64,000 nt of DNA. Origin: Patescibacteria group bacterium (lineage in GTDB: Bacteria; Patescibacteriota; Patescibacteriia; UBA2196). Positions 14,600 through 40,129 of this stretch are shown here, one piece after another (position 1 is the stretch's first letter; the number at the start of each line of letters is the position of its first letter). The position numbers and the translations under genes are program-made. The DNA lies in contig JAQTPI010000003.1 of the NCBI GenBank assembly GCA_028748975.1, positions 33,064 through 97,063 on the forward strand, written 5' to 3'. The notes under the pieces are model-generated. The model ran no database searches. It was not told the origin of the DNA and saw only the letters and a program-made list of their open reading frames with translations.

Positions 14600-14760
14600 T
14601 TAAATTTTTAAGCTACGAATTTGTGTCGTTATCCCCTCCTTTCGAAGGAGGGGTGGCCGATAGCAATCGGTCGGGGTGGTTGTAATTTGTATTTTTTACA
14701 ACCCCTCTGCCCTCGACTGCTGTCGGGGCACCTCCCCTTCGAAAGGGGAGGATAACCACT
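14600..14760. repeat. Composite GC-rich palindromic element (CCCCTCCTTTCGAAGGAGGGG + GCCGATAGCAATCGG + …CCCCTTCGAAAGGGGAGG). Family copies are at 1795-1920, 17030-17170, 51705-51830 and 29560-29640.
   Basis: Perfect ttcgaa-centred palindromes, paired across a tggttgtaa…ttacaacc spacer. Confidence 0.8.
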
Positions 14761-14815
14761 TTTAGACACGCTTCAGTCCCCCGCCAAAGCGAGGAACTGC
14801 TTGTTTGTCTAAAAA

Positions 14816-16249: not shown

Positions 16250-16996
16250 TTATTCAATCGGTTCCACCAAAAATTCATCCACGTCTTTTTTTTCATCTTT
16301 TACTTCCCCATTCTCCGCGTCAGCTTCAATTATTGGCAAATCTTTATTTACTTCGGCTGGTTTTTCCGCTTCATAATTAACGTCGCCGACAGTTGTTTCA
16401 TTTAGCCACTCATCGTCCAGGGGTTCATCGTCTACTGGAAAAACCGATTCATCCGCTGTGATTGTTTTTTCTTTAAAAACATCGGGTAGATCTTTTTCCT
16501 CGTCCATCTTTAAATCTTTGTCCATAAAATCTTCTGGCCATTTGGGCGGAGTCCAACTTGCCTCGCCAAAAGGCGGGTTTTCATCATCATCGTCATCATC
16601 AGCCAAGGGGTCAAAAGTTTTTTTGCCGAAAATATCTTCCTCGCGATCGCCAAACAAATCTCGGTCATGATTAAAATCATGATTAAAATCAGTATTATTA
16701 TCAAACGGCAGACGCGGCATAAAATCTTCACCTAAATCACGGGGCGAGAAAAAATCCATGTCGGTGCCGAGTCCGATTTCGCGCTGGGCCTGTTTCCACA
16801 AAGAAATTTCGCGGTTGACGCGGTTTAAAATTTCTTCCTCGGTCATGCCGGCGTAATCGGTTTGGTCCGAAACCATTTCTTCATATTTTTCAAGTGGCAC
16901 AATGGCAAATGGTTCGCCAAATTCCGGCACGACAATCATCTTGTCGCCGGTGCGCTTGGCCAGGTCTATGATTTTTTCAAGTTGAGGGGAAAACAT
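16250..16996 (-). CDS. Highly acidic (D/E-rich) hypothetical protein between fusA and tuf
   Basis: 248 aa with DDDDDDENPPFGE and many DxxxD runs. No family recognised. Its location inside the str operon is atypical. Confidence 0.5.
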   Translation of the reverse strand: MFSPQLEKIIDLAKRTGDKMIVVPEFGEPFAIVPLEKYEEMVSDQTDYAGMTEEEILNRVNREISLWKQAQREIGLGTDMDFFSPRDLGEDFMPRLPFDNNTDFNHDFNHDRDLFGDREEDIFGKKTFDPLADDDDDDENPPFGEASWTPPKWPEDFMDKDLKMDEEKDLPDVFKEKTITADESVFPVDDEPLDDEWLNETTVGDVNYEAEKPAEVNKDLPIIEADAENGEVKDEKKDVDEFLVEPIE

Positions 16997-17230
16997 AATT
17001 CAAGTAAATGTCATTCCGAGTCCCGCATTTGCGGGGCGAGAAATCTCGTCGCTATCCTCCCCTTTCGAAGGGGAGGTGTCCCGCAGCAGCGGAACGGAGG
17101 GGTTGTAAAATATTCTACCACAACCACCCTGCTCGCTCTCGCTCGCACCCCTCCTTCGAAAGGAGGGGATAACGATTTTATTTTCTGTATTTATTATAGA
17201 ATTCCTATAAAAGAAGTCAAATAGAAATTC

Positions 17231-24866: not shown

Positions 24867-24937
24867 TCGGGCTGCCGGGAATTGAACCCGGGTTACATGC
24901 ACCCCATGCATGCGTAATACCGTTATACCACAGCCCG
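24867..24937 (-). tRNA. tRNA-Pro (anticodon GGG)
   Basis: The reverse complement folds into a cloverleaf with a 7-bp acceptor CGGGCUG/CAGCCCG, an anticodon stem CATGC/GCATG, the loop AUGGGGU and a T-arm CCGGG-UUCAAUU-CCCGG. No CCA is encoded. Confidence 0.75.
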
Positions 24938-36993: not shown

Positions 36994-37464
36994 TTAATCG
37001 TCTTCTTTTGACCGAGGCGGCGGCGTGTTTAGAATTTGTTGTTGACTTGCGCTTAAATTAATAGTGGCCCCCAGATCACCCAAATAGTATGCCTGCAAAA
37101 TTGACTCCGCACCACCAGAATGGGAAACACCGGGAGTTCTGTCTTTGGTTAAAAAAGCAGTAGTGCCATCCCGGCCACAAACGCTTAAAATTGTCTGGCT
37201 GCCGCCGGAATGAGAATAAATTAAAGAAGTCAGGTTATAAACCTGGCCGGAAATTATTGACCAGCAATCGGAAGCAGAATTGTGTTTGGCTACTTCCGCC
37301 ATGGTTAAATTAACCGGGCCGATGATGCCAGAATTATTAAGAATGGAATTTTGGCCGCCTAAATTATTTTTCTTTTCAGCCGAAAGCAAGCTGGCGGTAA
37401 TTAAGGCAACAGCCAGCGCCCAAAAAATAAAAAGAAAAACTCCGGTGAGATATTTTGTTTTCAT
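36994..37464 (-). CDS. Secreted cytochrome b5-like heme-binding domain protein
   Basis: Signal peptide, then AEVAKHNSASDCWSIISGQVYNLT…HSGG…CGRDGTTAF, which is the b5 fold signature. Confidence 0.65.
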   Translation of the reverse strand: MKTKYLTGVFLFIFWALAVALITASLLSAEKKNNLGGQNSILNNSGIIGPVNLTMAEVAKHNSASDCWSIISGQVYNLTSLIYSHSGGSQTILSVCGRDGTTAFLTKDRTPGVSHSGGAESILQAYYLGDLGATINLSASQQQILNTPPPRSKEDD

Positions 37465-38759
37465 AAGTTAAAATTTTCACTGATTATTTTTTTAGATTTG
37501 CCGCCCATCTTTTTTAATTGTCCTCTGATGGCTTGCATCATGCCGACCGGACCGCAGATGAGAATGGTGCGCTCGCGCCAATCCGGCACCAATTTTTCAA
37601 TAGCCGCGCCGTTTAAAAATCCGCTGGCTTCAGCGACCCAGACAATTGATTTAAAATTTTTAAAATTATTTTTGGAGTCTGCCAACTCCGAATTAAAAAC
37701 CACCTCGGCCGGTTTATTCCAGCTTTGGATCAAAACAATATCTTTTTCTTTATTTATTTCTTTGGCCAGAGATAAAAATGGGGTCAGGCCGATGCCGCCG
37801 GCAAGCCAAAGTTCGGGCCCGGAAATATTTTTCCCAAAACTGCCAAAAGGCCCTTCCACTAAAACCCTATCGCCGATTTTCAAAACCGCGAGTTTTTTAG
37901 TAAAATCACCGAGTTTTTTTATTACAATCCGCAAATCATTATTTTCTTTTCTCTCCACCAAAGAGAAAGGATGGCTTTCAGTCGGCAGTTCGGGATTATA
38001 GAAAGTAAAAAAGGCAAACTGCCCGCCAGAAATTAACACGGGTTTTCCCAAGGATTGCAGAGTGATATCAAAAAGATCTGGTTGCGGCTGTGTGATTTCT
38101 GAAATGGTGTAGGAAAAGCGCCGGCCGGCTTTTTTGGTCATCTGCAGGCGATAAATTATGCCAACCACGGCCAAAATTCCCAAAAGATAATAATATAGCT
38201 GCAGTGGCAAAAAGGCGGAAACATCGCTGGGCACCAATAAAATGTGGGGGTAAGTCAGGACAAAAACCAAAACCATGAATTTGTGCGAAAAAAGCCAGCG
38301 CTGATAGCTGGGCCGGAAAAAATAGGTCAAAACTAAAAGAAACATCAGGCCAAGCAGCGCCACAATGCCAAATAAAACCGGCAAGTTGTGAAAACTGGGA
38401 ATCAAAAGTTCGGCCGCGGCTTTGAGTGATCGCGAAACAAAGCGATATGCCAGAGCCAAGGGATGAACCAAAAGCAGACAAAAAGCCAAAGTACCCAGCC
38501 AATGGTGCTTGAGATAGACAAAATTCAAACCGGAAAACCAACGTTCCAAAAATTTGGCGCGCGAACTTAAAATAATATTGCCGACCAAAAATGACAGGCC
38601 GACAAGACCGCAAATTTGGCCAAGGCTGCGCCAGATATTAATGGTGGTGGTAAAACGAACCGAAAGCGGGATGGCCAAAATCCAGAGAATAAAAGGAATG
38701 CCGGCTAAAACCAGAAATAAAATTGTCCAGATAAAAAACGATTTGGAAAATATTTTCAT
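37461..38759 (-). CDS. Ferric-reductase/NOX-like membrane flavoprotein (FRE TM domain + FAD/NAD-binding)
   Basis: 6-TM N-terminal part with conserved His. HPFSL (FAD binding) and CGPVGMM (NAD binding) are present. A 4-bp overlap with the b5 gene indicates an operon. Confidence 0.7.
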   Translation of the reverse strand: MKIFSKSFFIWTILFLVLAGIPFILWILAIPLSVRFTTTINIWRSLGQICGLVGLSFLVGNIILSSRAKFLERWFSGLNFVYLKHHWLGTLAFCLLLVHPLALAYRFVSRSLKAAAELLIPSFHNLPVLFGIVALLGLMFLLVLTYFFRPSYQRWLFSHKFMVLVFVLTYPHILLVPSDVSAFLPLQLYYYLLGILAVVGIIYRLQMTKKAGRRFSYTISEITQPQPDLFDITLQSLGKPVLISGGQFAFFTFYNPELPTESHPFSLVERKENNDLRIVIKKLGDFTKKLAVLKIGDRVLVEGPFGSFGKNISGPELWLAGGIGLTPFLSLAKEINKEKDIVLIQSWNKPAEVVFNSELADSKNNFKNFKSIVWVAEASGFLNGAAIEKLVPDWRERTILICGPVGMMQAIRGQLKKMGGKSKKIISENFNL

Positions 38760-38866
38760 GTTTTTATTTTTCGATCAATTGGTTTGTTAGTTTGTCTGTT
38801 TGTCGACTGATCGGTTCATCTGTTTATTGGTTTGCTAGTTTATCAGATTATTAAATTATTAAATTA

Positions 38867-39493
38867 TTATTTTGCTGGTTTATACCCCCATTCCTCCAGA
38901 TTTCCCGCTCTAATTTCCAATTCATCGGCGCGGCGCAAATGGCGGATTTGCGCGCGGGTGAGGATGGAAAAATGTTTAACTTTGACCAAATATTCCGGGA
39001 TATAATCAATTTCCTTTTTGGTCGTCATCCAGCCCAGTTGATCAAATCTTTTTAAATTAACCGGCAAAGAATAACGGCGCAAGCTTTTATTTCCTTTTTT
39101 ATCCAGATATTCATGGAAATAACTCATGGCCAATTCGCGCGGCGAATTATAAATCGGTTCGCGGTAACGCAGAGCCGCGTGATTGGTCTTGGAAATGGCT
39201 CCCCACTTGCCAAATTTCTTAAAAAGCGCCACCACGTGGTCATAATCATTTTTACTGGCGGTTAAATCCAAAAGCAGGGGCGGCCGGCCATTAACCCTAA
39301 GTATCAGCGCCGCCAAAGTTGCGGCCTCAATGCAGTGGCAAATCCGCTTGTCCAAAACTGTCAGGGGCGAATAGCAGGTATCGCCGTGTTTTTCATAATT
39401 AATTTTCATGCCATCTAAAAAATCCTGGATTTTCTCCGGCGTGTCCAGTTTTTTAAAAAGTTTCCATTCCTTTTCCGGCAAAAAATTTTTCAT
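38867..39493 (-). CDS. Hypothetical protein, possibly transglutaminase-like cysteine-protease fold
   Basis: CHCIEAATLAALILRVNGRP resembles a transglutaminase-core Cys motif. It starts 3 bp downstream of the AbrB-like gene. Confidence 0.4.
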   Translation of the reverse strand: MKNFLPEKEWKLFKKLDTPEKIQDFLDGMKINYEKHGDTCYSPLTVLDKRICHCIEAATLAALILRVNGRPPLLLDLTASKNDYDHVVALFKKFGKWGAISKTNHAALRYREPIYNSPRELAMSYFHEYLDKKGNKSLRRYSLPVNLKRFDQLGWMTTKKEIDYIPEYLVKVKHFSILTRAQIRHLRRADELEIRAGNLEEWGYKPAK

Positions 39494-39496
39494 AAT

Positions 39497-39682
39497 TTAT
39501 TTTTTTACTTTTTTCTTCCAGTCTTTAATGATTAATTGCCGGCCATGGCGTGATACTGTTACTTTCTGCTTTTCCTTCCATCCGAATTCTTTAATAAGTT
39601 CTAAGGGCAAACTAACAACATAGCTGTGGCCGCTTTTCATAATTTTTCTGATATTTTCTTGGGTTAATTTTCGTCGGGACAT
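39497..39682 (-). CDS. AbrB/MazE/SpoVT-type swapped-hairpin DNA-binding protein (antitoxin-like)
   Basis: 61 aa. …SGHSYVVSLPLELIKEFGWKEKQKVTV… is typical of the looped-hinge-helix fold. Confidence 0.6.
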   Translation of the reverse strand: MSRRKLTQENIRKIMKSGHSYVVSLPLELIKEFGWKEKQKVTVSRHGRQLIIKDWKKKVKK

Positions 39683-39727
39683 ATTTTTTGATATTATTTT
39701 ATGTCATGATTATAATCATGACAGGAT

Positions 39728-40129
39728 TTATTTGCTCCAATTTAAAATTGTAATTGTTAATTGTAAAACCGTGGCAAAACAAACCCAAAGTAAATATGGT
39801 AAATTAATAAAACTTACCCATTTGGCAAAAGGAAAAATGGCTAGAAGCGCCCAAATTAAAGTCCCCAAAACCAAAAAAATATCAATGGCCGCGAGCAGGT
39901 TGTTTTGTAACCCGAATTGCAGGGGCGTAAAGAGCATATTAAAAATAATATTTAAGATAAATGGCAAAAGCACTAAAAAAGAAATCCGGCCTTTGAAAAA
40001 TAAAAAACCGACGTAGCCAAAAGAAGCAATAATGATGGCATAGAGCGCGATCCAAACCGGGCCAAAAAGCCAGGCCGGCGGCGCCCAAGTCGGTTTGATT
40101 AAAGTTTGATACCAAAGGGCAGTAGGCAT
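39728..40129 (-). CDS. tspO: TspO/MBR tryptophan-rich sensory protein
   Basis: W…KPxWAPPAWLFGPVWIALY is the family signature, in a 5-TM protein of 133 aa. Confidence 0.8.
   Translation of the reverse strand: MPTALWYQTLIKPTWAPPAWLFGPVWIALYAIIIASFGYVGFLFFKGRISFLVLLPFILNIIFNMLFTPLQFGLQNNLLAAIDIFLVLGTLIWALLAIFPFAKWVSFINLPYLLWVCFATVLQLTITILNWSK

Follow-up and report, generated by a model that had tools for sequence, protein, structure and literature searches.

A CPR-C4-family cysteine protease gene behind a small AbrB-type regulator gene and an operator-like palindrome in a Patescibacteria genome

The human vasohibins, VASH1 and VASH2, are tubulin tyrosine carboxypeptidases and belong to the transglutaminase-like cysteine proteases. 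To our knowledge, tubulin is absent from bacteria. A remote vasohibin-like fold has been described for CPR-C4, a highly conserved protein of CPR bacteria that forms a homodimer (Cornish et al., 2022, J Biol Chem 298:101919; PMC9108980). Its PDB entries are 7OB6, 7OB7, and 7PJO. CPR-C4 and the vasohibins have the same non-canonical catalytic triad, which in CPR-C4 consists of Cys61, His93, and the backbone carbonyl of Leu115, and the protein was active as a protease on labelled casein in a BODIPY-casein assay (PMC9108980). Vasohibins depend on a small partner, SVBP; the CPR-C4 homodimer is self-sufficient, and its pocket has the opposite charge (PMC9108980). CPR-C4 also has a tri-aspartate zinc site, D83, D92, and D182, which is not required in the family; a residue is aligned at position 182 in fewer than half of the members (PMC9108980). 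When over-produced by itself in E. coli, the protein yielded more than 10 mg/L (PMC9108980). The published gene is transcribed divergently from its neighbors and has no adjoining AbrB-type gene, and its position gave the authors no clue to the function of the protein (PMC9108980).

Two further groups of described proteins resemble the locus reported here. Members of the AbrB/MazE/SpoVT superfamily have the PF04014 domain, whose beta-beta-alpha-beta-beta monomers pair into a swapped-hairpin dimer. They bind specific DNA sequences, typically repeats close to their own promoter, and those that are autoregulated have a palindromic or repeated site upstream of their own gene. MazE and VapB are 75-85 aa long and have C-terminal toxin-neutralizing extensions. 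The controller (C) proteins of restriction-modification systems are proteins of the Xre-type helix-turn-helix fold, encoded upstream of a restriction endonuclease gene and associated with C-boxes. They are small, autoregulated DNA-binding proteins with repeats upstream and a co-transcribed cargo.

The window, which is the whole stretch of 64,000 nucleotides that was analyzed, contains two adjoining genes on the minus strand, for proteins of 61 aa and 208 aa. The stop codon of the first is separated from the start codon of the second by 3 nt (TAA-ATT-ATG), in agreement with the preliminary description. The features of the locus are given below.

39702..39723, no strand: perfect 22-bp palindrome, TGTCATGATTA followed by TAATCATGACA, a putative operator, 20 nt upstream of the ATG of the 61-aa gene
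39696..39724, minus strand: weak, putative promoter-like element, CTGTCA-17 nt-TAAAAT, embracing the palindrome, with 9 of 12 consensus matches
39497..39682, minus strand: gene for an AbrB/MazE/SpoVT-type DNA-binding protein, 61 aa, from the Pfam PF04014 match
38867..39493, minus strand: gene for a CPR-C4-family (vasohibin-like, transglutaminase-like) cysteine protease, 208 aa, from phmmer against the PDB
38836..38866, minus strand: conserved 3' segment past the protease stop codon, from the alignment of the window with the DNA of its closest relative (L007); the end of the two-gene unit common to both

Upstream of the 61-aa gene lies a TspO gene (39728-40129), and downstream of the protease gene lies a ferric-reductase/NOX-like gene (37461-38759); both had been described correctly before. 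Genes for a cytochrome-b5-like protein, a PD-(D/E)XK protein, and a P-type ATPase are present beyond the NOX-like gene. No paralogue of either gene of the pair was found within the window. Both genes are under purifying selection, with dN/dS values against L007 of 0.06 for the 61-aa gene and 0.11 for the 208-aa gene.

The sequence places the 208-aa protein in the CPR-C4 family, a published family with a solved structure, as an ordinary member. Its residues 4-203 matched CPR-C4 (7ob6_A) in a phmmer search of the PDB with E = 3.5e-54 and 187 bits. The homology runs over the full length, the two proteins are of similar length, and both are of CPR/Patescibacteria origin. The preliminary description had stated that no known toxin family was recognizable in this protein. 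That remains the case for toxins, but the protein itself is recognizable as a CPR-C4 family member through the PDB match. An identical protein, PHT40_01810, is held by NCBI as a "hypothetical protein" of a Patescibacteria group bacterium MAG. A scan with NCBIfam and PADLOC models gave no match to the 208-aa protein, and all Pfam matches were sub-threshold: Transglut_core (E = 0.017), DUF553 (E = 0.025), and Vasohibin (E = 0.15). Each of these is a transglutaminase-like cysteine protease family, and the similarity in sequence to the vasohibins is not significant.

The cysteine motif that had been likened to those of transglutaminases and cysteine proteases is borne out by the alignment with CPR-C4. 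The motif, CHCIEAATLAALILR, occupies residues 52-66, and the second cysteine of its "CHC" is Cys54, which aligns with the cysteine of "AHC" in CPR-C4, the catalytic Cys61. The codons of the putative triad, as located by the alignment, are as follows.

39332..39334, minus strand: Cys54, the predicted catalytic nucleophile, equivalent to Cys61 of CPR-C4
39236..39238, minus strand: His86, equivalent to His93 of CPR-C4
39170..39172, minus strand: Leu108, equivalent to Leu115 of CPR-C4, which supplies its backbone carbonyl as the third element of the triad

All three residues are invariant among 18 diverse homologues. Two of the three zinc-binding aspartates are also present and invariant (D76 and D85). 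Unlike in CPR-C4, the third position, that of D182, is aligned with a valine, Val170. The 208-aa protein is predicted to form homodimers and to act as a vasohibin-like cysteine protease by means of a Cys-His-Leu(carbonyl) triad. The family to which it belongs is large. There are 6,793 homologues among 90%-identity clusters; at 50% identity the number of clusters is 1,200, and most of these consist of a single domain and are 200-220 aa long. The family spans many CPR phyla and DPANN archaea at 49-75% identity. CPR-C4 is among the most conserved CPR/DPANN-specific proteins.

The gene in front of the protease gene likely codes for a transcription factor of the AbrB type that stands alone; within the AbrB/MazE/SpoVT superfamily it is a minimal member. 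The earlier reading of this protein as AbrB/MazE-like was upheld by a profile search, in which residues 15-56 matched PF04014 (MazE_antitoxin, AbrB/MazE/SpoVT domain) with E = 8.6e-7; the score of 29.3 bits exceeds the gathering cutoff, which is 24.7 bits. The NCBI name of the identical protein, AbrB/MazE/SpoVT family DNA-binding protein, agrees. The domain fills about residues 12-57 of the 61 and is preceded by an invariant basic N-terminus, MSRRK. The protein ends in a Lys-rich tail (KVKK), which is shorter by about 3-4 residues in L007 and in every other relative. MazE, VapB, SpoVT, and AbrB carry a C-terminal toxin-binding or sensor domain, whereas the 61-aa protein and its relatives (55-62 aa) are almost purely a DNA-binding domain plus the basic MSRRK arm. 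Scans with NCBIfam and PADLOC gave only sub-threshold antitoxin-like matches ("doc_partner" and VapB models). An AF2 model, which was built from 5 sequences and is of low confidence (pLDDT 61), has the beta-beta-alpha-beta-beta order of the superfamily. The top Foldseek matches of this model were MazE, VapB, AbrB-N, and pSSVx C68, all non-significant with E > 0.1. The model and the fold search were used as consistency evidence only.

The palindrome upstream of the 61-aa gene is possibly the site at which its product acts. A 20-bp core, GTCATGATTATAATCATGAC (39703-39722), is identical in L007 despite a different upstream gene. The left arm is kept in another locus (L001), and in a further one (L005) the region upstream of the small gene contains TCATGATTTAAATCATGA plus a third half-site. 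Altogether, four lineages that differ in their flanking genes retain the palindrome or its half-sites upstream of the small gene. The promoter-like element that embraces the palindrome is less certain. Matches to the consensus in this AT-rich stretch are no commoner than in shuffles, and so the promoter is put forward by inference only.

Close relatives of the locus indicate how the two genes may have come together. In L007, the small protein is 91% identical (as it is in L008), the protease is 85% identical, and the protease gene again begins 3 nt downstream with the same TAA-ATT-ATG junction. The gene order there is DUF3800, GmrSD/HNH, palindrome, small gene, protease, and PD-(D/E)XK. The DNA homology between the window and L007 starts exactly at the palindrome, continues through both genes, and extends about 30 nt past the protease stop codon. 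It breaks at the NOX/cytochrome-b5 module of the window, and the PD-(D/E)XK gene beyond is common to both. This module lies downstream of the protease gene in the window and upstream of it in L170, and it is absent in L007 and in L169. In L169 (protease 88% identical), the protease gene is followed by PD-(D/E)XK and P-ATPase genes, and the contig ends inside the protease gene. In L170 (protease 83% identical), the C-terminus of the cytochrome-b5 protein is encoded 22 nt upstream of the protease gene and there is no small gene. Homologues of the protease at 73-75% identity have a radical-SAM gene or a gene for an unknown 109-aa protein upstream. Since the arrangement varies even among such close relatives, the pairing of the small gene with the protease gene is, by gene order, a recent and lineage-restricted one.

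We think it fairly probable that a regulator cassette was placed upstream of a CPR-C4-family gene and now drives or gates its transcription. A cassette of operator, promoter, and AbrB-type autoregulator would have been inserted in front of the conserved protease gene. The 61-aa protein would bind the palindrome GTCATGATTATAATCATGAC as a dimer or tetramer and would probably repress its own promoter. The protease would most likely be co-transcribed with the regulator, and so come under its self-limiting control. As the junction is 3 nt long and contains no terminator, co-transcription is expected, and with it gating of the protease by the regulator. The preliminary description had also offered a "regulated effector pair"; this is plausible in the sense of transcriptional coupling only. 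In L007 the two genes are inherited as a unit.

A second explanation, that the adjacency is incidental, appears somewhat unlikely to us, but it accounts for a number of the observations. The AbrB-type regulator would then have its targets elsewhere, and the protease gene would be read through as part of a minus-strand operon extending from TspO to the P-type ATPase. In its favor, a second near-perfect copy of the putative operator lies elsewhere in the window (16665-16694). No terminator was found between TspO and the 61-aa gene, and transcription entering from upstream could therefore extend over both genes independently of the palindrome. The surroundings of the protease gene have been rearranged among close relatives, as the NOX/cytochrome-b5 module illustrates, and in many cases a relative of the small gene either stands alone or converges with its neighbor (the downstream gene is on the opposite strand in 21 of 67 cases and on the same strand in 46). 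A point against the cassette explanation is that the adjacency was found in two sampled lineages only, the window and L007/L008, and any selective value is therefore conjectural. Against incidental adjacency, the block of operator, regulator, and protease is kept as a unit in L007, together with the 3-nt junction, while the upstream genes differ. Moreover, with no terminator between the two genes, transcripts that start at the promoter of the small gene must include the protease.

In surveys of both families, the two genes were not otherwise found together. A word-indexed search of 5.8 billion proteins with the 61-aa protein yielded five relatives only. Apart from the L007/L008 protein, these include two solitary ones at 70% and 60% identity, of which one is encoded before mreC and the other has arginase on one side and a convergent PPIase gene on the other. 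A scan of metagenomes supplied a further 80 loci with relatives of the small protein (40-62% identity), and in none of the 80 was a CPR-C4 homologue present within 2.5 kb. The protease side is similar. With an HMM of the 61-aa protein run on all ORFs, the small gene was adjacent to CPR-C4 in 0 of 80 sampled loci. Two matches that resembled the small gene were set aside as weak and non-adjacent, and thus not a conserved partner: one in L030, about 1.6 kb upstream of CPR-C4 (E = 7e-6), and one in L020, downstream of CPR-C4 (E = 0.004).

The protease gene does not appear to have any constant partner. Its upstream neighbors in the 80 loci vary in size, strand, and spacing. No Pfam family was found upstream in more than 3 of 77; the recurrent ones are ArsP permease, FtsZ, RNase III, and methylase. 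All-against-all clustering of the neighbors likewise gave no cluster present in more than 4 of the 80 loci. FtsZ adjoins CPR-C4 in four DPANN loci only, and because these share other synteny they represent roughly one event. Housekeeping-type genes, among them those for FtsZ, RNase III, Obg, tRNA methyltransferase, and PBPs, are found near it elsewhere.

The preliminary description had proposed a toxin-antitoxin pair. Such a pair would be a new type II system in which the protease is the toxin, neutralized by direct binding of an autoregulating AbrB-type antitoxin. The layout is indeed the canonical one: a palindrome precedes a small AbrB/MazE-family gene, which is tightly joined to the larger gene behind it. 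The 61-aa protein also has its weak, sub-threshold likeness to the "doc_partner" and VapB models, and in L007 the defence-type genes GmrSD/HNH and DUF3800 adjoin the pair. However, the partners do not co-occur in either direction: the protease is without the small gene in all 80 sampled loci and in L170, and relatives of the small protein are without CPR-C4 nearby in all 80 metagenome loci. The AbrB domain occupies nearly the whole of the 61-aa protein and leaves no neutralizing segment, and the 3 residues that end the protein are deleted in L007. No Pfam, NCBIfam, or PADLOC toxin or defence model matches the protease, and its crystallized homologue, CPR-C4, could be over-produced in E. coli on its own (PMC9108980). 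The protease family is broad and slowly evolving, and not a patchy, fast-evolving addiction gene. It is essentially the kind of housekeeping family, large and strongly conserved in CPR and DPANN, that the preliminary description had named as speaking against its proposal. A toxin-antitoxin pair is therefore very improbable here.

Equally little probability is given to a defence or abortive-infection module, in which an AbrB-type repressor would keep a protease effector silent until phage attack. The support for it is circumstantial: relatives of the small gene often precede restriction or defence-type genes, and restriction genes adjoin it in L007 and L001. Against it, the protease family is broadly conserved and slowly evolving with housekeeping-like neighbors elsewhere, PADLOC has no match for the protease, only a minority of the partners are of a defence type (2-3 of 58 are methylases), and neither family was found on the viral contigs scanned.

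The genes that follow the relatives of the small gene are varied. No downstream family recurs more than twice among 58 loci. Tightly coupled cargo includes DpnI, an HNH nuclease, T5orf172, GNAT, HicB-like proteins, DUF218, a class-II aminoacyl-tRNA synthetase, a glycosyltransferase, and several unknowns. Other restriction or defence-type genes that occur after the relatives are TaqI, DNA methylases, Abi_C, AAA_21, and DUF4238. The small-protein family was considered as a regulator of defence genes and this was rejected, as PADLOC finds only DNA methylases, in 2-3 of the 58 downstream partners, which is too few.

Repeats are present in 67% of 58 unique upstream regions of the small-protein family, compared with 9.8% of shuffles. 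To be counted, a repeat had to be either direct, with a length of 8 nt or more and a spacing of 9-14 nt, or inverted, with arms of 7 nt or more. The repeated motif varies with lineage (TCATGA, TTACGTAA, TACGTAC, TTCAGTA, and others), and this variation suggests that the protein and its upstream site may co-evolve. The pattern is that which would be expected of a self-regulating DNA-binding protein co-evolving with its site.

These observations allow a broader reading, which we regard as unlikely and offer as speculation. The AbrB-type proteins of 55-62 aa with the pattern MSRRK...GWKEKQK could be portable controller cassettes found CPR-wide, an AbrB-fold functional analogue of the C proteins. 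Each would bring a lineage-specific operator array and a self-limiting switch over whichever gene lies downstream, be it for a nuclease, a methylase, an acetyltransferase, or CPR-C4. The likeness to C proteins would lie in the small autoregulated DNA-binding protein, the upstream repeats, and the co-transcribed cargo, of which autoregulation and co-transcription are inferred in the present case. The differences are in fold, Xre-type helix-turn-helix in C proteins and AbrB in the 61-aa protein, and in cargo, a restriction enzyme in the one case and a protease in the window. Only a minority of the relatives of the small protein are linked to restriction-modification genes (DpnI, TaqI-like, HNH).

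The CPR-C4 protease family and the AbrB/MazE/SpoVT superfamily are both known already, and nothing categorically new is present at this locus. What is new is that CPR-C4 appears to have been captured behind a regulator in one lineage, in contrast to the published CPR-C4 locus, which has no small regulator gene 3 nt upstream of the protease. Also new is that CPR genomes encode a family of very small AbrB-type proteins with putative lineage-specific operator arrays. The pair does not belong in catalogues of toxin-antitoxin or defence systems. For the study of transcription-factor and operator co-evolution in unculturable organisms, the small regulators and the upstream repeats that co-vary with them offer a candidate set. 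A lineage in which the protease seems to stand under an AbrB-type regulator with a defined candidate operator offers a way to ask when the protease is expressed. If the small proteins are portable controllers, the capture of CPR-C4 by one of them would imply that unregulated expression of the protease is costly, and it would provide a first handle on when CPR cells deploy it.

A near-perfect second copy of the putative operator that precedes the small AbrB-type gene was found in the window by sequence match, inside a coding ORF and near a repeated intergenic element.
14625-14762 and 17048-17179: intergenic GC-rich element of ~135 nt, two copies
16250-16996, minus strand: ORF of 248 aa, very acidic
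16665-16694: second copy of the putative operator, TCATGATTAAAATCATGATTAAAATCAGTA
This site carries the 18-bp operator core with one mismatch, and a third half-site is present at a spacing of 12 nt. There are three overlapping matches in the window, against 0.04 expected. By eye, the site is identical at ~30 of 32 positions to the operator array that precedes the relative of the small gene in locus L005. The peptide that the acidic ORF encodes at this point is DFNHDFNHD. The site could be a genuine second binding site, or else a chance product of the coding tandem repeat. The ORF itself has no Pfam match; its N-terminus has a Phd/YefM-like look by eye.

The acidic ORF and the EF-Tu gene are flanked by the two copies of the ~135-nt element. 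Each copy consists of two perfect hairpins (e.g., CCCCTCCTTTCGAAGGAGGGG) with 67 nt between them, and the hairpin arms are 82-100% complementary both within and between copies. No Rfam family matches the element, which looks like a REP/MITE-like structured repeat. Two tRNA genes in the window match Rfam RF00005.
24867-24937, minus strand: tRNA gene, 59 bits
43142-43213, minus strand: tRNA gene, 77 bits
Read along the gene strand, the latter is ~3.5 kb ahead of where the small gene starts.

The genes for a NOX-like ferric reductase and a cytochrome b5 act like a movable two-gene module.
Window 36994-38759: NOX-like and cytochrome-b5 genes
L170 3-110: cytochrome-b5 gene
In the window, the module sits between the protease and a PD-(D/E)XK gene. 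It is missing from that position in L007, the closest relative with small gene and protease paired, and in L169, which encodes a close protease relative. In L170, another such locus, the protease is directly preceded by the module's cytochrome-b5 gene. With TspO, these genes form a cluster whose products are membrane proteins related to haem or porphyrin, an unusual find in a CPR genome.

Relatives of the small gene were also found with nuclease, acetyltransferase or restriction-type neighbours.
L001 319-3522; L007 1022-2125; L107 2685-3089; L120 2680-3282; L123 2649-3263; L139 1929-2741: small AbrB-type gene relatives with such neighbours
Genes for DpnI, an HNH nuclease, T5orf172, and a GNAT acetyltransferase each lie directly downstream of, or are overlapped by, a small AbrB-type relative. 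Further relatives adjoin restriction genes of the Eco57I/MmeI and GmrSD/HNH types. Real controller-cargo or toxin-antitoxin-like modules could be among these pairs.

Four loci with CPR-C4 homologues, all from Woesearchaeota/Nanoarchaeota, have an FtsZ gene nearby.
L036, L045, L070, L077, about 1800-2950 in each: FtsZ gene, same strand, first or second gene upstream (-1 or -2) from the CPR-C4 homologue
This is intriguing because tubulin, which is homologous to FtsZ, has its C-terminus trimmed by vasohibins, human carboxypeptidases with a remote fold likeness to CPR-C4. The four loci are probably not independent events, since L045 and L070 have downstream neighbour clusters in common. Among the loci with CPR-C4 homologues (L009-L088), those of DPANN archaea (Woesearchaeota, Pacearchaeota, and Nanoarchaeota) encode proteins with 50-60% identity to the window's bacterial protease. 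Such identity is unusually high across domains and suggests either horizontal transfer between two ultra-small episymbiont groups or a very constrained common function.
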